A DNA stretch of 64,000 nt from Candidatus Doudnabacteria bacterium (lineage in GTDB: Bacteria; Patescibacteriota; Doudnabacteria; UBA920). Positions 9 through 16,780 of the stretch are shown one piece after another; position 1 is the first letter of the stretch, and every line of letters begins with the position of its first letter. The DNA lies in the NCBI GenBank assembly GCA_963788395.1, contig CAWBGV010000020.1, positions 69,195-133,194 of the forward strand, given 5' to 3'. A program made the position numbers and the translations under genes. A model generated the notes under the pieces. The model did not search any database. It was not told the DNA's origin and saw nothing but the letters and a program-made list of their open reading frames with translations.

Positions 9-301
9 CGCGGGATAGAGCAATTGGCAGCTCGCAAGGCTCGAGTATTGGGCTGCGTCGGAAGAAATTCTGACGTGATATCTTGTCAAATTCGGGGAAG
101 CCTGTAAAATGGTAATCCCGAGCCAAGCTCTGCTTAAAGTAAGCAGGGAAGGTGTAGAGACTTAATGGCAAGCACCTAAGGCCTAAAAGCTATGGTGAAG
201 AGAAAGTCCAGACCACAAATCTGTCATTTGACAGAGCAATGAAAGTTGTAGTGGTATGCATAACCTTGAGGTTCCCGGTTCGAGTCCGGGTCCCGCAACC
301 A
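9..301 (+). tRNA. tRNA-Met(CAU), initiator-type, split by a group I intron (exons 9-41 and 259-301)
   Basis: The exons join into a 76-nt cloverleaf with anticodon loop CUCAUAA. The C1xA72 mismatch (CGCGGGA/TCCCGCA) and A11:U24 are initiator hallmarks. T-arm is GGTTCGAGTCC and CCA is encoded. Confidence 0.85.
42..258 (+). ncRNA. Group I (IC3-like) intron in the anticodon loop, no ORF
   Basis: Inserted after U33. P1 can form with a U41-G51 wobble at the 5' splice site, and the intron ends in G258. P2 is 56-75, an 8-bp stem with a GAAA loop. Core strings GTCAAATTCGGGGAAGCC, AATCCCGAGCCAAGC, GGAAGGTGTAGAGACTTAATGGCAAGCACCTAAGGC and GCTATGG match the Azoarcus/Anabaena tRNA introns as I remember them. 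Confidence 0.8.
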
Positions 302-7968: not shown

Positions 7969-9495
7969 ATGGCAGACCAAATTCCAATGGACCCGTCAGC
8001 TGCTACTAATCCTGCTGAGACTGAGCAGTACTTGTTTTTTAATGTCATGCCGCGCGCCAAGAACAGTTCCGCGGTAGTCAGCCCAACCATAAAAATCAGC
8101 AGTGCCGCGCCCAAAACTTCGGCGACAAACACTTATTGGCTTAAATACCGTTGGTATGCAATCGGTTTAGTGGTTGTTGTTATTGCCGGATTAATTGGCT
8201 ATTATTTTTACAATAAATATACCGAAAGCCTTGGCCAAAAGGCGGAGACGGCTCTGGTAGTTAGCCATCCGCATCCTATCCCTGCCGCAGCGGCCACGCC
8301 AACCGCAGTCGCTTCCAGTACTATAGCAGGTTTTACCACTCCCCAAAGTTGGCGTAATAATTTTTTTAATGCTTGCACCGATATTACCGTTTGTGGTGAC
8401 GAAGCCGACCCGGACCATGACGGCTTGAGCAACCTCCAGGAATACAAGCTCGGCACCGATCCGAACCACAACGACTCCGACGGCGACGGAATTTCCGACG
8501 GTGATAAAGTCTTGGTTTTCGGTATGGACCCGTTAGCTGCCCACAACGGTACAGACCCCAGTTATACTGACGCTGACTATTTAAAAGGCGGCTACGATTT
8601 TAAAACTGGCCAGTTACTGCCTGCAGCGGAACTTTCAGCTTTGACTCAAAGAATGAATCAGTATTGTTTGCATGAACCAACCGTAACTACTCTGGCCGGC
8701 GTTTTAACTTCACTCTATCATTTTAACTGTCAGCCCGGCCAAGCCCCGGCGGCCCAAGCTTCTTCTACGCCGGTCACTACAGCCACCAGCACTCCAACAT
8801 CCACACCGGTTTCATTGCCCAGCACCACGCCGACCTCGGTAGCCACCAGCACCAGCATGCTGGATATTGACCAAAGTCCTTCGGCCAAAGAAAACCGCGA
8901 CGCCCAGCGAACAACGACCTTGCAAAACATCGCGGTCGGTTTAGTGAAATACTTCCAGCAAAATAAATCGTACCCCGACACAACCAATTTTGCCGATATG
9001 GCTTCAACCATAAAACCCTATAACTTAGTAGCTACTAACCCGGTAGACCCTATCAATCAAGGACAATTTGTTTATAGCTATACCCCCAGCCCTAACAATT
9101 CTGATTTCGTTTTAAGCTACTTTAGCGAAACCGAAAATCAGCTTATTCAAATTCATGCCGCCGACGCCCAAAAAACCGCGGCTCAGCAGCAGGCGGATAA
9201 TTACGACGAGCAGCGCAAAACAGACTTGGCCAATATTCAAACCGCGCTCTTACTTTACTCCAACGATAACATCAGCACCGGACAAGATTATGTCTTCCCC
9301 ACAGAAGATAAGTACCAATCATCACTCGTACCTAAATACTTAGCTCAGATGCCCAAAGATCCGGAAACCGGACAAGATTACGATTACCAAGTTTCGCAAA
9401 CATTCGACGCTTTCACGGTTAAAGCCGCTCTCGATGACGCGCCTGCCGGGTATTCGGGGTATTTATGCAACGAAGAGGAGTGCAGGTATTATTGA
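7969..9495 (+). CDS. Membrane-anchored surface protein with Ca-binding TSP3-like repeats and two pilin-like globular modules
   Basis: TM helix (YAIGLVVVVIAGLIGYYF). DPDHDGLSNLQEY…DSDGDGISDGD repeats. An S/T/P-rich linker. Two segments resemble post-helix pilin sequence (RDAQRTTTLQNIAVGLVKYF…YPD and EQRKTDLANIQTALLLYSNDN). Confidence 0.55.
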   Translation: MADQIPMDPSAATNPAETEQYLFFNVMPRAKNSSAVVSPTIKISSAAPKTSATNTYWLKYRWYAIGLVVVVIAGLIGYYFYNKYTESLGQKAETALVVSHPHPIPAAAATPTAVASSTIAGFTTPQSWRNNFFNACTDITVCGDEADPDHDGLSNLQEYKLGTDPNHNDSDGDGISDGDKVLVFGMDPLAAHNGTDPSYTDADYLKGGYDFKTGQLLPAAELSALTQRMNQYCLHEPTVTTLAGVLTSLYHFNCQPGQAPAAQASSTPVTTATSTPTSTPVSLPSTTPTSVATSTSMLDIDQSPSAKENRDAQRTTTLQNIAVGLVKYFQQNKSYPDTTNFADMASTIKPYNLVATNPVDPINQGQFVYSYTPSPNNSDFVLSYFSETENQLIQIHAADAQKTAAQQQADNYDEQRKTDLANIQTALLLYSNDNISTGQDYVFPTEDKYQSSLVPKYLAQMPKDPETGQDYDYQVSQTFDAFTVKAALDDAPAGYSGYLCNEEECRYY

Positions 9496-9496
9496 T

Positions 9497-9566
9497 GAGA
9501 GGGGTTAGAGATTAGGGGATAGAGGGCAGAAATTACTAACCCCTAATCCCTACCCCCTAATCCCTA
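9497..9566. repeat. Intergenic inverted repeat containing telomere-like CCCCTAATCCCTA 13-mers (G4 motif on the minus strand)
   Basis: The 5' arm GAGAGGGGTTAGAGATTAGGGGATAGAGGG contains no C. The 3' arm CTAACCCCTAATCCCTACCCCCTAATCCCTA contains no G. The 13-mer occurs at 9540-9552 and 9554-9566, and inverted at 25486-25498. Confidence 0.7.
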
Positions 9567-9570
9567 GACT

Positions 9571-11116
9571 ATGCCCACAACTTCCTTTCCCGGCATTATT
9601 GCCGCCAAAGTTACCAAAGTAGAAAAACACCCAAATGCCGACCGGCTGCGGGTGGTAGAATTGTCTGTTGGCCACGACCAAACGGTATTTCCGGTGGTCT
9701 GCGGCGCTTTTAATTTTGGAGTGGGGGACATGGTAGTATTAGCGCTACCAGGCGCCCATATTCCCCACAACATTCACTCTGAGCAACACGAACCCTTTAC
9801 CCTGGAGAAAGCCACCATCCGCGGCATAGAAAGCCAGGGCATGATCTGCGCCGGCTTTGAACTGGGACTCCAGGCCGAGCCAGGAGATAAACCGGAAATT
9901 TTATTGCTTAAACCGGAAGTCGTGCCGGGTCAGGAATTTACCCCGGACATGATTCAACCGGAACAAAAAAAGACTATGCAGACTATTATTATTGACACCG
10001 CCGAAGAACAACAACTAAAACAAAAATTAGCACAAAGGACCGATACCGAGGCCCAGCGCATGCGGCGATACTTGAGTACTGCCGGATTTGTCGCGAACCC
10101 CAGGCAGCCCGATTGCAGAAATAGTCAAAAGAATTTTAGCCAGTCCCTATTTTGCCGGTCTGGACGTCATTCAAACTCCGGAAATCGTTCCGGCCAGCGT
10201 CAGTTTTGACTTGTTCGACTTTCCGGCCGATCATCCCGCCCGCAGCAAGTCCGACACCTATTATGTTGACGATGACCATATTTTGCGCACCCACACCACC
10301 GTAATGTGGTACTACTACTTACAAGATGCCAGCGTCAAAAAGCGCATTACTGAACACCAGCCTGTGGGTTCCTTTAGTTTCGGCAAAGTCTATCGGAAAG
10401 ATGAGATTGACCGCAAGCACATGAATGTCTTCCACCAAATTGACGGCTGGTATTTAGCGCCTAAAAGCCAAAAAGTTATTACTCAAACCGATTTAGAAAA
10501 AGCTCTCGGCAACATTGCCAAAGCCGTGTTCGGGCCCAACGCCAAGTATCGCCTCAATAAGGACACATTCCCTTATACCGATCCTTCGCTGGAAATGGAA
10601 GTGGATATTAACGGCAAGTGGGTGGAGGTAGTAGGATGCGGAGTGGTTAAAGGGAGCGTTGTGGAAAAATTAGGGGTCAATCCCGACGATTACACCGGCT
10701 GGGCCTTTGGTTTTGGGTTGGAGCGTTTGGCCATCAGCAGCATGGATCTGCCGGATATTCGTTTGTTGTGGTCAACTGATCCGCGCGTCACTAAACAGTT
10801 GCAGCTTGGCCATAAGTTCGTTGAGGTCAGTAAATTTCCGCCGATAACCCGGGATATTTCTTTTATCGTTAATAAAGATTTTATCCCCAATAATTATTTT
10901 GATTTAATCCGCGATATTGGCGGGGATTTAATTGAGCAGGTCGAGCTGTTGGATAAGTACGAAAATCCCGAAAAGTTCGGTCCGGATAAAATCAGCTACA
11001 CCTACCGCGTCGTCTATCGCAGCAATGAACGAACTTTACGGACCGAAGAAGTGGATCCTTTGCAGAACAAATTATACGAACAAACCAAGGATATCTACAA
11101 GGCAGAATTGCGATAA
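9571..11116 (+). CDS. Single-chain phenylalanyl-tRNA synthetase-like protein (PheT-type tRNA-binding domain + PheS core + FDX-ACB domain); one frameshift near 10080
   Basis: N-terminal part: KVEKHPNADRLRVVELSVG…VCGAFNFGVGDMVVLALPGA…IRGIESQGMICA. Core: FPADHPAR, FGKVYRKDEIDRKHMNVFHQIDG, GWAFGFGLERLA. C-terminal part: KFPPITRDISFIV…YFDLIRDIGGDLIEQVELLDKY…YTYRVVYRSNERTL. The ORFs 9571-10209 and 10088-11116 are in different frames. Confidence 0.8.
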
Positions 11117-11261: not shown

Positions 11262-13320
11262 ATGGCTAAACAAGAAAACAGAAAAACCGACCGGCGGTTA
11301 TACCGCTGAAAACATTACCGTCCTGGAAGGACTCGAACCGGTGCGCAAGCGCCCAGGTATGTATATTGGTTCAACCTCGGAAACCGGTTTGCATCATTTG
11401 GTCTGGGAAGTGGTAGACAACTCGGTTGACGAAGCCATGGCCGGGCACGCCAATAGAATTGTAGTAACTCTGCAAAAAGACGGCGGCGTCAGCGTAATTG
11501 ATAACGGCCGCGGGATACCAGTCGATACGGTCAAGGCTACAAAAAAATCAGCACTAGAGACTGTCTTGACGGTCCTCCACGCTGGAGGTAAATTTGGCGG
11601 CGATGCTTCGGGCTATAAAGTTTCAGGCGGTCTTCATGGTGTTGGTGTTTCGGTGGTAAATGCGCTTTCGACGAATCTCATTGCCCAAGTTAAACGCGAT
11701 GGCAAGGTCTACGAACAGCGTTTTAAAATTGGCAAGCCCCAGGGCGCCGTTAAAGTCGTTGGAAAAGTCGATAAAAAAGATCCCGACCAAACGGGCACCA
11801 AAATTACTTTCTATCCCGACGCCTCTATTTTTGAAACTACGGAATTTAAGTTTAAGACGGTACTGGAGCACTTGCGCAGCCAGGCCTATTTGACCAAGGG
11901 GTTGCATTTTGTGATTACCGACGAAAATGCGGGCCTGACCTATCAATATTATTTTGAAGGCGGCGTGGTCAGTTATATTAAGCAGCTCAATCGCAACAAA
12001 AAAACCCGCAACCAGCCGATTTACATCAACAAAATGTTCGAAGGCGACATTATGGTGGAACTGGCCATTCAGTATACAGACGATTTTGACGAACGGATAT
12101 TGGCCTACGCTAATAATGAATACAACCCCGAAGGCGGCATGCATGTTACTGGTTTTCGATCCGCTTTAACTCGGGTGATCAATAACTACGCCATTAAAAA
12201 CGGTTATGTTAAAGAAAACGAAAAATTAACAGGTGAAGACATGCGCGAAGGTTTAGTAGCGGTCATCTCTGTTAAATTGCCCAATCCACAATTTGAAGGG
12301 CAAACCAAAGCCAAATTAGGTAATCCAGAAGTTCGGACCGCGGTAGAAGCCGTGGTAAACCAAGAAATGGAAGTTTTCTTGGAAGAGCATCCCAGCGATT
12401 CGTCCAAAATTATCGAAAAGGCTATTCTGGCTTCCAAAGCTCGTTTGGCGGCCCGGGCGGCGCGCGATAGTGTTATCCGTAAAGGCGTCTTAGAAGGACT
12501 GGCATTGCCCGGCAAACTGGCCGACTGTTCGGAATCTGATCCCTCCAAATGTGAACTCTACATAGTTGAGGGTGATAGCGCCGGCGGCAGCGCCAAGCAA
12601 GGCCGCGATCGCCGTTTTCAGGCTATTTTGCCGCTCCGGGGTAAAATTTTAAACGTCGAGCGGGCGCGTTTAGACAAAATGCTATCGTCGCAGGAAATTA
12701 AAAATCTGGTCATCGCCTTTGGCACGGGGATAGGGGAATTGTATGATGTTTCCAAACTCCGCTACCACCGAGTTATTATCATGACCGATGCCGATGTAGA
12801 TGGTGCGCACATTCGGACCCTGCTTTTAACGTTATTCTATCGCTACTTCCCGGACATTATCAAAGGCGGCCATCTTTACATTGCCCAACCACCGCTGTTC
12901 CGCGTCCAGGTCGGCAAAGAATTCCAGTATGCGTTTTCCGATGAAGAACGGGATGAAATCTTAAAAGACCTGGTAAGCGAAGCTAAGGCCAAGAAAAAAA
13001 CCAAGACAGATGCGAAAAAAACTACCGATGAAACTGAAAATGCTGAAATTGCCGGCGATATAGACCCGGAAGCAGCCACCTCTTCGGCCATGGACGGAAT
13101 AAAATACACGATTCAACGCTACAAAGGTTTGGGCGAAATGAATCCGGGTCAATTGTGGGAGACCACCATGGACCCGCAAAACCGGGTCATGCTTCAAGTC
13201 AACATCAAAGACGCCGAAAAAGTCAGCGAAATTTTTGAGGTCCTGATGGGAGACGAAGTAGCGCCCAGAAAACGGTTTATCACCACTCACGCCAAGACGG
13301 TCAAAAACTTAGATATTTGA
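11262..13320 (+). CDS. gyrB: DNA gyrase subunit B (frameshift near 11285 in an A-run)
   Basis: ATG at 11262 (MAKQENRK…) shifts frame into …GGYTAENITVLEGLEPVRKRPGMYIGS. GHKL ATPase, TOPRIM (EGDSAGG) and C-terminal motifs are all present. Confidence 0.9.
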
Positions 13321-13397
13321 CGTTTGCAGTTTAATATTATAAGATACTCGCAGTCCTATTCCCGCATCCGCGGGAATTTATAAATAATCCCTTAAAA

Positions 13398-13859
13398 ATG
13401 TCTAAAAAATACTTGCTGACGCCGGAAGGTTTAGTCAAATTAAACGAAGAGCTGAAAGTTTTAATCAACGACAAACGCAAGGAAGTCATTGAACGCATCC
13501 GCGAAGCTGCTTCTCACGGCGATCTTTCGGAAAATGCTGATTACGCCCAGGCCCGCGAAGAACAGTCGTTTATAGAAGGCCGGATCCAGGAAATTGAAGA
13601 TATTATCAAAAATGCCGAAATTATTTCCACCGCCAATCACGGCTCGTCAGTAACCATTGGCTCGACCGTGCAGATTAAAGTCAACGGAAATGAAAGAAAA
13701 TATACCATTGTTGGCAGCAACGAGGCCAACCCCAAAGAAGGCAAAATCTCCAACGAATCGGCCGTAGGCAGTTCTTTATTGGGTAAAAAGACCGGCGAAA
13801 AATTTAAGGTTAATACTCCAGCGGGTGAGATGGAATATGAAATAGTGAGTATCGAATAA
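13398..13859 (+). CDS. greA: Transcription elongation factor GreA
   Basis: LTPEGLVKLNEELKVL…GDLSENADYAQAREEQSFIEGRIQEIE; 153 aa. Confidence 0.9.
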   Translation: MSKKYLLTPEGLVKLNEELKVLINDKRKEVIERIREAASHGDLSENADYAQAREEQSFIEGRIQEIEDIIKNAEIISTANHGSSVTIGSTVQIKVNGNERKYTIVGSNEANPKEGKISNESAVGSSLLGKKTGEKFKVNTPAGEMEYEIVSIE

Positions 13860-13889
13860 ACTCCAAAACTATTTAGGCATTATAAAAAA

Positions 13890-13923
13890 CCCCTGCTTTT
13901 TTTGTCAAAAGCAGGGGTTTTTG
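13890..13923 (+). terminator. Intrinsic terminator after greA
   Basis: Hairpin CCCCTGC…GCAGGGG followed by TTTTTG. Confidence 0.75.
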
Positions 13924-13966
13924 TTATACTTTAAGGGAATTATATTAGCTAAATAAACCCTTTCCC

Positions 13967-15443
13967 ATGTCGGAACGACTTGAAGATATTGTCAAACACC
14001 GTCGGCTCAAGCTGGAAAACTTAAAAAAACTGGGGATAGACCCTTATCCTTCGGCAACTCAACGTACTCACAGCAATGCCGAGGTTTTGGAACGTTTTGA
14101 CGAACTTTCCACGCAACCGGTTACCGTTGTCGGTCGAATTCGCAGCTGGCGAACCATGGGCAAGCTCATTTTTGCCCATATCGAAGACGGTACTGCTAAA
14201 ATTCAGATTCTATTTAAAGAGGATGGGGTTGGCAGCGAAGCGTTCGGGATGCTGTTGGAAAACGTGGATATGGGTGATTTTATTCAAGCAACCGGCACGT
14301 TATTCACCACCAAGGCGGGCGAAAAAACAGTTCAGGCTAGCGGATATAAACTCTTGGCAAAATCACTCTTGCCTCTGCCGAGCGAGCACTATGGCTTAGC
14401 CGACGAAGAGACAAAGTTACGTAAGCGCTATTTAGATATTTTACTTAATCCCGAGACTAAGCAATTATTCATCAAAAAAAATCAGTTTTGGGCGGCCATG
14501 CGGGAATTTCTGGTCCGAAAAAGGATTTTTAGAATTAGAAATGCCAGTTTTAGAAGCCGTCCCAGGCGGGGCCAAAGCGGAACCATTTATAACTCACCAT
14601 AATGCTTTAGATCGAAATTTTTATTTACGGATTAGTTTAGAATTGCCCCTTAAAAAAATGCTGGTCGCCGGTTTTGAGAAAGTTTTTGAGATCGGACGGA
14701 TTTTCCGCAACGAAGGAATCGATACCGAGCATTTGCAAGATTACACCCAAATGGAATTTTATTGGGCCTATGGCGATTTTGAACAGCTCATGGATTTTTT
14801 GCAGGAACTGTATCAGTTTGTCATTCAAAAAACGTTTGGCACGCTAAAAACTTCTTATCAGGGACAAGAAATTGACTGGTCCGGCTCCTGGCCGAGGCAG
14901 GATTATTTTTCTTTATTTAAAAAATATACGAGCATAGATCTTAACACTACTTCGGAAGACGAGCTGAGAACTTTTGCGGACGCTCATAAAATTTCTTACG
15001 AACCGACCGCCGGCCGGGGCAGATTGATTGATTTAATCTTCAAGAAAAAAATCCGTGTTTTGCCGGAAGTTTCATTTCAACCCTCATTTTTGATTAATCA
15101 ACCGGTAGAATTAGAGCCGTTGGCCAAACGCGATCCGAAAAACCCCAAAGTGGTCCAGCGCCTGCAAATTTTAGTGGCCGGCAGCGAGATGGGAAAAGGT
15201 TTTGGGGAATTAAATGATCCGATTGATCAGCGGGCGCGCTTTGCCGAACAAATGAAGCTGCGCGAAGCCGGGGATACCGAAGCTCAGATGCTCGACGAAG
15301 ACTACGTTGAAGCCATGGAATACGGCATGCCTCCGGCAGCCGGTTTTGGCGTTTCGGAACGTTTATTCTCCGTCCTCGCCGACAAGTCCATCCGCGAAAC
15401 CGTAATTTTTCCCCCGATGAAAACTAGTTCTCATAATTCTTAA
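13967..15443 (+). CDS. lysS: Lysyl-tRNA synthetase, class II (frameshift at about 14515 in an A5 run)
   Basis: OB anticodon-binding domain plus class II core (RYLDILLNPE…FLELEMPVLEAVPGGAKAEPFITHHNALD…FRNEGID…). Removing one A from CGAAAAAGG restores the frame. Confidence 0.9.
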
Positions 15444-15470: not shown

Positions 15471-16780
15471 ATGCTCGACATTAAATACATCCGCGACAAT
15501 CCGGATAAAATCAAAAACGCAGTCAAACTTAAGCGCATCGATCTTGATGTTGACCAGCTTTTAGATGTAGACAGCAAGCGTCGCGATCTTTTGACGGAAC
15601 TGGAAGGCCTGCAGGCGGCCAAAAATAAATTCTCCAAAGAAATTGCTTCTTTGAGCCCGGAAGAAAAAAAGACCAAATTGGTAGAAATGAAAGAAGTCGA
15701 CGAACGCGCGACCACCGTCAAAAATGAGCTACAAAAAGTGACGTCGGAATACGACGAATTAATGTACAAAGTCCCGACTGTCCCGGCAGAAGACACCCCC
15801 ATAGGCAAAGATGGCAGCGAAAACGTCGAGGTGGAAAAATGGGGAACAATTCCCAGCTTTGACTTTAAAATTAAAGACCACATCCAACTGGGGAAGGATT
15901 TAGACATTTTAGACTTAGAACGCGGAGCCAAGGTCGGCGGCTACCGGGGTTATTACGTAAAAAACGACGGCGTGTTGTTAATGATGGGTTTTTTGTTTTA
16001 TGCCATCAAAAAAATGGTAGAAAAAGGCTACTCCCCAATGATCCCGCCGACGTTGGTAAAAGAATTTGCGCTATTTGGCAGCGGCTACTTTAAAGGGAGC
16101 GAGTATAATCCCGATACCGACGAAATTTACATGGTAGCCAATCGCGACAAAGACCAGAGCGGTCAAACCAGCGGCGAGAAAAAATTTCTGGTAGGAACGG
16201 CTGAACCGTCCATTTTAGCTTATTATGCCGACGAAGTCCTGGATGAATCCCAGCTGCCCATCCGCAATTCCGGCTACAGCCAATGCTACCGCAGCGAGAT
16301 TGGCAGTTACGGCAAAGACACCAAAGGCATTTACCGCGTCCACGAATTTATGAAGATCGAGCAAGTCGTGCTGGCGCCGGCCGATCTTGAGGTGGCCGAC
16401 CAAATGCAGCAGGAGATGCTTTCTATCTCCAAAGAACTGCATCGCGACCTGGGCCTGCCGTTTCGGGTCTTGCGGATTTGCAGCGGCGACCTGGGCCCCG
16501 GCAAATATAAACAATTCGACATGGAAGCCTGGATCCCTTCGCGCGAAAGCTACGGCGAAACCGGTTCATCTTCCAACTTCTTAGACTGGCAATACCGCCG
16601 GCTAACGCAAAATACAAAACTCCCGGAGGCGAGAGAAAGTATGTCTACATGCTCAACAACACCGCCCTGCCTTCTCCGCGGATTTTTATCGCGATATTAG
16701 AAAACTACCAGCAGAAGGATGGAAGTGTAGTGGTGCCGGAAGTCTTGAGGCCGTATGTGGGAAAAGACGTTATTAGATAA
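15471..16780 (+). CDS. serS: Seryl-tRNA synthetase (frameshift near 16605)
   Basis: MLDIKYIRDNPD… coiled-coil arm plus class II core (…YRSEIGSYGKDTKGIYRVHEF…). The C-terminal part …NTALPSPRIFIAILENYQQKDGSVVVPEVLRPYVGKDVIR is read in the +1 frame. Confidence 0.9.

Follow-up and report, generated by a model that had tools for sequence, protein, structure and literature searches.

The question raised by this locus is whether a bacterium can charge its phenylalanine tRNA with a synthetase made of one chain. Textbooks and reviews describe three forms of phenylalanyl-tRNA synthetase (PheRS), the monomeric one being confined to organelles. The gene considered here lies at positions 9571-11116 (+) of a 64-kb window (the whole stretch of contig CAWBGV010000020.1 that was analyzed) and, once a single inserted base is deleted, codes for a PheRS of one chain and 514 aa. 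It was concluded, with a probability of about 0.72, that this is a functional mitochondrial-type single-chain PheRS of a Patescibacteria (candidate phyla radiation, CPR) bacterium related to Doudnabacteria and Parcubacteria.

Domain architecture and predicted function

Two overlapping open reading frames (ORFs) were found within the interval, namely, ORF1 (9571-10209, frame 1, 212 aa) and ORF2 (10088-11116, frame 2, 342 aa). The corrected protein opens with a B2-like oligonucleotide-binding (OB) domain, which a linker and the N-terminal helices connect to the class II core, and closes with the FDX-ACB domain. The tRNA_bind OB-fold domain, which resembles domain B2 of PheT, was located at 9598-9933 (+) by Pfam PF01588 (ORF1 aa 10-121, E = 1e-13), with a score of 51.6 bits against a gathering score of 27 bits. 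It was closest to PheT B2 in both the NCBIfam and tblastn comparisons, aligning with positions 42-149 of the PheT model TIGR00472, that is, with B2 (E = 1.7e-25), and being 36% identical to E. coli PheT aa 41-142; PheT chains also matched it in a sequence search of the PDB. A six-codon linker, PEQKKT (9958-9975, +), leads in frame from the OB domain to the ATG at 9976, whose Met aligned with the start Met of 380-aa homologs. The N-terminal helical region of the enzyme (9976-10108, +) was delimited by homolog alignment and contained helices at residues 144-190 in the AlphaFold2 (AF2) model.

The class II PheS-type catalytic core was found at 10109-10798 (+) (Pfam PF01409 tRNA-synt_2d, ORF2 aa 8-237, E = 1.1e-54) and was 32% identical to E. 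coli PheS (tblastn). Alignment of its residues with E. coli PheS and with the family at large placed, on the same strand, HPAR at 10220-10243, RTHTT at 10280-10300, motif 2 at 10379-10447, FPYTDPS at 10568-10588, and motif 3, GWAFGFGLERLA, at 10697-10732. The FDX-ACB anticodon-binding domain, which is B8-like, followed at 10829-11113 (+) (Pfam PF03147, ORF2 aa 248-342, E = 1.1e-21) and aligned with TIGR00472 positions 694-798, corresponding to B8. No other part of TIGR00472 was matched, the domain set B1, B3/B4, B5, and B6/B7 of the canonical beta subunit being missing, and the Pfam search detected neither a B3_4 nor a B5 domain in the gene. The preliminary description of this DNA had proposed such an arrangement, with a PheT-like OB-fold tRNA-binding domain at the N-terminus, a PheS core, a mitochondrial-type FDX-ACB domain at the C-terminus, and no B3/B4 editing domain. 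Each of these parts was recovered by the domain searches, and every motif that it quoted was located where it had been placed.

The closest solved chain by sequence was human mitochondrial PheRS (PDB search, E = 1e-58, 202 bits), the best bacterial PheS alpha chain reaching 137 bits, and identity to the human enzyme was ~50% over the C-terminal 200 residues, anticodon-binding domain included. The AF2 model of the corrected protein had a predicted local distance difference test (pLDDT) score of 84.9 and a predicted template modeling (pTM) score of 0.60, at which its inter-domain geometry is unreliable; the best Foldseek match of the model was 3CMQ (E = 2.6e-32, TM 0.66, 388 aligned columns). 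The pocket and catalytic residues were kept, namely, HPAR, RTHT, the motif-2 Arg, His, and FHQ, FP[Y]T, GCG, GWAFG (the Ala of which is the counterpart of E. coli A294), and the motif-3 Arg. The Phe- and ATP-binding residues, including the two substituted positions (FPYT and HQIDG), were invariant across the family. Human mitochondrial PheRS reads G34 via Asp364, Phe366, Ser375, and Arg414 (PMC7540514). The counterparts mapped from these residues were D461-K-Y463 (10952-10960), S475 within SYTYR (10994-11008), and the C-terminal R514 (11111-11113), all on the forward strand and invariant in the family. The mitochondrial-type character suggested earlier was thus upheld by sequence, fold, and the retained catalytic and anticodon-reading residues. 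Because the structure match, the kept pocket, and the kept G34-reading residues point together in this direction, Phe-tRNA-Phe synthesis would be the best-supported function of the protein.

According to the proposed mechanism, the class II core would activate Phe with ATP, and the C-terminal FDX-ACB domain would read G34 of the tRNA-Phe anticodon in the manner of the human mitochondrial enzyme, presumably within a monomer. The PheT-B2-like OB domain, which is usually a separate protein encoded upstream, would here act in cis, probably as a general tRNA-binding helper, a role known for Trbp111 and the MetRS C-terminal domain. By this analogy, it probably raises the affinity for tRNA, in trans in most species and in cis in the window. 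Since the B3/B4 module is missing, Tyr-tRNA-Phe is predicted not to be hydrolyzed by the enzyme, which would therefore be without proofreading of this product, and a trans-editing factor may exist. Loss of editing is known from Mycoplasma and mitochondria.

The gene is followed by gyrB and then by greA and lysS, and tblastn with E. coli PheT and PheS found no canonical pheS or pheT in the 64-kb window beyond the focal gene, in agreement with the earlier remark that gyrB is next and that no pheT follows. The same queries detected none beyond the focal gene in 166 related loci, and none was present in 2.2 Mb of flanks of 160 relatives, which represent only ~2% of each genome. The group infC-rpmI-rplT was present in none of the loci retrieved. 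The single-chain protein may be the sole PheRS of its genome.

Comparison with known systems revealed the greatest likeness to the monomeric PheRS of mitochondria and plastids (FARS2, yeast MSF1, TIGR00469, PDB 3CMQ, 3TUP), which likewise consists of one chain with a PheS-type core and a C-terminal FDX-ACB domain, likewise lacks B1, B3-B7, and the editing site, and shares the Phe/ATP pocket and all four G34-reading residues in addition to being the best fold match. However, mitochondrial PheRS is encoded by a nuclear gene with a targeting peptide, whereas the CPR gene is bacterial, chromosomal, and part of a housekeeping operon. The CPR protein lies under the TIGR00469 cut-off and in a separate clade, it is devoid of the insertion that splits its alignment with the human mitochondrial enzyme, and the B2-like OB domain, whether fused N-terminally or encoded just upstream, is a CPR feature not found in mitochondrial PheRS. 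The canonical (alpha-beta)2 enzyme has two chains, of which PheS is homologous to the CPR core and PheT B2 and B8 are homologous to its OB and C-terminal domains, respectively. The CPR enzyme has one chain, without B1, B3/B4, B5, and B6/B7, in the order B2-core-B8, so that, unlike in canonical PheRS, the B2 part stands ahead of the catalytic part. The PF01588 fold is shared with Trbp111, CsaA, YtpR, TapR, the MetRS C-terminal domain, and the CPR B2-TyrRS and LysRS-B2 proteins, which, like the CPR module, lie beside or are fused to an aminoacyl-tRNA synthetase (aaRS) gene. The CPR module differs from the other tRNA_bind modules in having a monomeric PheRS as its partner and in scoring under the YtpR and TapR cut-offs.

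Fused and separate forms of the gene and the break in its frame

Eight clusters of proteins, P0001-P0008, represent intact fused homologs: each carries the three Pfam domains in one ORF of 504-520 aa and aligns with 99% of the query at 61-76% identity. The fused form was carried by three independent contigs for P0005 and two for P0001, in the same neighborhood as in the window (RmuC-NYN-PIN-UvrD/PDDEXK-two unknown genes-fused gene-gyrB). The single-chain, three-part architecture first read from the interrupted gene is thus present as an uninterrupted ORF in independent assemblies. The number of fused variants is a lower bound because P0001-P0008, which were expected to score highest, were missing from the results of two homolog searches, one of which used the isolated OB domain and the other the first 250 residues as the query.

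The commonest layout was a 380-aa enzyme, alone or behind a separate B2-like gene. A separate B2-like gene lay directly upstream (gap 2-250 nt, with a stop between) in 24 of 80 GTDB species representatives and in 10 of 80 metagenome contigs, that is, in 34 of 160 loci, and neither set contained a fused gene (0/80 each; 0/160 in total). In some other genomes, no B2-like gene adjoined the enzyme. In-frame fusion is therefore a rare, minority form. On the 811-kb contig L004, the OB domain was a separate 142-aa gene ending 7 nt ahead of the 380-aa enzyme gene, and the stand-alone CPR proteins closest to the OB domain were ~140 aa long (64-75% identity). The fused forms did not make up a single clade in a rough tree, which fits repeated fusion of adjacent genes. 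In CPR bacteria, B2 is a mobile module, fused to some TyrRS and LysRS and missing from many PheRS beta subunits (Mukai et al. 2017, PMC5370408). It should also be noted that in two loci of a Minisyncoccia lineage (L006 9314-10000 and L007 7759-8445), the 379-aa enzyme gene was preceded by ~690 bp of intergenic sequence in which not even a small gene was called.

The single indel near 10080 that the preliminary description had reported in an otherwise continuous frame is real, and homolog alignment placed it at C10079. Frame 2 has a stop, TGA, at 10073-75, and a one-base insertion at 10078..10079 (+), probably an assembly error, splits the frame. Over the break, 14 aligned homologs read RRYL[S/N/A]MPDLSRTxGSPI. 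Removal of C10079 from 'agt a[c]tg ccg gat ttg tcg cga' gave RRYLSMPDLSRTPGSPIAEIV, the same as in homolog P0010, and the corrected frame restored RRYLSMPDLSRT, in agreement with the intact homologs. A public NCBI/ENA record, a contig of 150,378 bp, contains the 212-aa frameshifted ORF1 without any change; consequently, the indel belongs to the deposited assembly.

Other essential genes nearby were also broken. Comparison with the syntenic contig L004 revealed frame breaks in lysS (~14517), serS (~16600-16700), a mur ligase (~17550 and 18000), and probably pyrH (a pyrH-like kinase, ~19200), and the start of gyrB was likewise out of frame (11262-11341, gyrB N-terminus). From a separate data set, the short-read contig L091 (Logan ERR11630400; 1,437 bp) was 99.8% identical to window positions 13142-14580 and contained neither the extra G at 14517, which is precisely the lysS frameshift, nor the extra A at 13382. 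Relative to L091, the assembly had about 1.4 insertions per kb, one of them beside an A-run, and the deposited 150-kb contig appears to have roughly one insertion per kb. Since the lysS insertion is absent from this independent sequence and neighboring essential genes are also broken, the insertion at ~10079 is most likely an assembly error. Programmed frameshifting was considered and rejected on the basis of the same breaks and the L091 comparison.

Records that would span the break were also sought. Exact look-ups of the corrected 514-aa and 379-aa proteins and of the un-fused variants returned no record, look-ups of the upstream 508-aa gene and of ORF1 yielded no independent sequence across 10079, and a gapped DNA pattern across 10079 had 0 matches in JGI metagenomes.

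Family relationships and alternative explanations

A search of 1.84 billion representatives returned 250 clusters at E < 1e-30, and at 50% identity, all of the CPR family fell into about one cluster. Among the full-length representatives (n = 104), 87 were at the level of pheS_mito and 8 at the level of SrmL. For the mitochondrial model pheS_mito (TIGR00469, cut-off 258.35 bits), the corrected protein scored 231.9 bits and its intact homologs 226-243 bits, the only representative to clear the cut-off being the more distant P0121 (264.3 bits). For pheS (TIGR00468, cut-off 237.45), the corresponding values were 164.5 bits for the corrected protein and 159-174 bits for the family, and the OB domain scored 73-76 bits with YtpR (NF045760, cut-off 100) and 35 bits with TapR (NF045867, cut-off 120). 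The nearest NCBIfam model by score was SrmL (NF051887, cut-off 300), with 251-253 bits for the protein and about 250 bits for the family. Because the family scores just under every equivalog cut-off, its members are named 'hypothetical protein' at NCBI; the JGI labels are 'PheRS alpha chain' for the enzyme and 'PheRS beta chain' for the stand-alone OB protein.

SrmL has the same layout, with a PheS-like core and an FDX-ACB-like domain. However, true SrmL members, which score 359-419 bits, have a remodeled pocket (HPAR lost, FPF replaced by HPY, GWAFG by GLALG, and LGCG by LECG) and have lost the aromatic residue, the Ser, and the C-terminal Arg that read G34, whereas the CPR family keeps all of them. 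These replacements point to a different amino acid and/or RNA substrate for true SrmL. Membership of the window protein in SrmL was thus rejected by its score (251 versus 300) and its kept PheRS residues. The motif-2 and motif-3 arginines were kept in the true SrmL members (P0240, P0228, P0242, P0256, P0266, P0268, and P0231).

In a neighbor-joining (NJ) tree, which is rough and has a single outgroup, the CPR proteins formed a clade (bootstrap 88%) that joined SrmL and the Oligoflexia-type proteins and lay apart from the mitochondrial-type clade (80%). The nearest non-CPR bacterial relatives (L009 10001-11245 from the Oligoflexia metagenome-assembled genome (MAG) GCA_019694465.1, and L010 9463-10833) had 414-456 aa, a core with FDX-ACB, and a PheRS-like pocket, and their neighbors were peptidase M20, GCS2, MR_MLE epimerase, LD-carboxypeptidase, and ATP-grasp genes; they may be accessory ligases and not housekeeping PheRS.

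Several observations weigh against the assignment of the window protein as a functional PheRS. With none of the NCBIfam equivalog models does the corrected protein reach the cut-off, and more distant bacterial relatives (Oligoflexia P0125, as well as P0128) occur in non-housekeeping contexts. Two pocket positions depart from the classic PheRS consensus, with Phe replaced by Tyr in FPYT and Glu by Asp in HQIDG, the latter being common to many proteins above the TIGR00469 cut-off. Neither the window nor any of the 86 loci scanned contained a tRNA-Phe gene, and no independent read-level sequence was found for 10079 or for 9965-9971. Finally, a PheRS beta subunit is present in some CPR lineages (Mukai et al. 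2017, PMC5370408), because of which a canonical enzyme might co-exist with the single-chain one.

That last point, together with the nominal first rank of SrmL among the NCBIfam matches, the grouping of the CPR clade with SrmL and Oligoflexia-type proteins instead of the mitochondrial-type clade, and the peptidase and ATP-grasp genes around the Oligoflexia-type relatives, would fit a divergent PheS-like paralog with another ligase function, similar to SrmL, accompanied by a canonical pheS-pheT pair elsewhere in the genome. Such a paralog is nevertheless unlikely, as the score remains well under the range of true SrmL, the pocket and G34-reading residues that true SrmL has lost are all kept in the CPR family, the genes lie in a housekeeping context with conservation at the level of gyrB, and pheST occurred in none of the 2.2 Mb of flanks.

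The remaining alternatives accept the enzyme and concern the structure of its gene. An A7 run lies within the linker at 9965-9971, and with A6 or A8 at this position, the stand-alone ORFs would measure 148 or 141 aa, both within the family length range. Given the insertion rate relative to L091, with one insertion beside an A-run, and the absence of fusions among 160 related loci, 34 of which carry the B2-like gene separately upstream, the OB domain and the enzyme could be two genes joined by an indel error in this run. This was judged quite improbable: all stand-alone homologs end at ...EMI[KQ] plus 0-3 residues, whereas the window has no stop there (...DMIQ), and A6 or A8 would add tails of 11-18 residues overlapping the enzyme gene, unlike in any relative. 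Because of this missing stop and the same short-linker design in the verified fused homologs, the fusion in the window is very probably real. Very little weight was given to a genuine frameshift at 10079, implying a recent pseudogene, two polypeptides, or ribosomal frameshifting. The frameshifted ORF does appear verbatim in the public record, and the inserted base lies outside any homopolymer; however, lysS, serS, the mur ligase, and the gyrB N-terminus, all within these 10 kb, are broken too, an independent assembly of this organism does not have the lysS break, both flanks of the break are perfectly conserved with intact homologs, and no slippery motif is evident at the site. The single-chain PheRS thus remains the preferred interpretation of the locus, the break at ~10079 in it being most probably an error of the deposited assembly and not biology.

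Distribution and meaning of the family

More than 6000 clusters at 90% identity matched at E <= 1e-10, and at least 591 GTDB species representatives had a relative. The species were named as Doudnabacteria, Nomura-, Giovannoni-, Yanofsky-, Zambryski-, Niyogi-, Colwell-, and Wildermuthbacteria, Paceibacterota, and Minisyncoccia; the label 'Saccharibacteria' on many SPIRE/binchicken MAGs in the set is probably generic. The genes were embedded in bacterial operons on CPR contigs, the longest measuring 811 kb, and the family is consequently not an organellar enzyme of eukaryotes. The order B2 gene-PheRS-gyrB-greA-lysS-serS was common to the window and to the 811-kb contig L004, the identity between them being 83% for the PheRS part, 87% for gyrB, 85% for greA, 56-60% for lysS, and 50% for serS. 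This gyrB-like constraint, together with the housekeeping synteny, argues for an essential role.

Similar genes were also found on a phage-like contig and in a phage record. On a 160-kb contig (L092, Logan SRR32456865), positions 8001-9065 encoded a 354-aa PheRS with core and FDX-ACB that scored above the TIGR00469 cut-off. This contig is dense, one-directional, and mostly ORFan, carries IF1-like, dCMP deaminase, and dNMP kinase genes, and looks like a jumbo phage. A full-length match was also present in a 635-kb uncultured phage record (LR745206.1, 613857-614897). Since both records carry such genes, monomeric PheRS seems to occur in huge phages too.

Two further features of the window were observed. 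The spacer upstream of the gene (9496-9570) contains the repeated 'ttaggggat / cccctaatccc', with gggttagagattaggggatagagg ... cccctaatccctaccccctaatccc forming an inverted and direct repeat, which may be a small repeat element or may terminate transcription of the upstream 508-aa gene; the promoter and terminator scan gave nothing bearing on the PheRS gene above shuffled expectation. A tRNA gene at 9-301 (+), found by the intron mode of ARAGORN, has a 217-nt group I intron in its anticodon loop (Rfam Intron_gpI match at 23-233, 61.9 bits). ARAGORN assigned it the anticodon CGA (Ser), yet its variable arm is short, which is odd for tRNA-Ser.

In the full-text literature, no description of a bacterial or CPR PheRS of the monomeric or mitochondrial type, or of SrmL, was found, most subscription journals being outside coverage; the one relevant study was that of Mukai et al. 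(2017) on mobile B2 domains. As far as found, the CPR single-chain PheRS is thus widespread, unnamed in annotation, and undescribed. As to its history, there is an even chance that Doudnabacteria and much of Parcubacteria/Paceibacteria (at least 591 GTDB species) swapped the heterotetrameric PheRS for a monomeric, editing-free, mitochondrial-type sole PheRS, with a vestigial 'mini-beta' (the B2 OB domain) acting in trans or, as in the window, in cis.

For annotation and phylogenomics, such a PheRS would matter through its 'hypothetical' name at NCBI, the 'alpha'/'beta' split at JGI, and the GTDB bac120 marker set. This set includes pheS (TIGR00468) and pheT (TIGR00472), and both models miss the CPR enzyme at their cut-offs. 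The compact PheRS of 380-514 aa could serve as a small orthogonal synthetase scaffold. If a monomeric PheRS without proofreading does serve free-living or episymbiotic bacteria, the family would give a new view of how the most complex aaRS is minimized in genome reduction, predict that mistranslation with Tyr and m-Tyr is a greater risk in CPR bacteria, and offer a bacterial counterpart with which the origin of FARS2 and the pathogenic residues of its anticodon-binding domain could be compared. If the heterotetramer was indeed swapped in this way, the monomeric architecture would be an independently widespread solution of bacteria (and large phages), and not an invention of organelles, and it may be related to the mitochondrial enzyme's ancestor.

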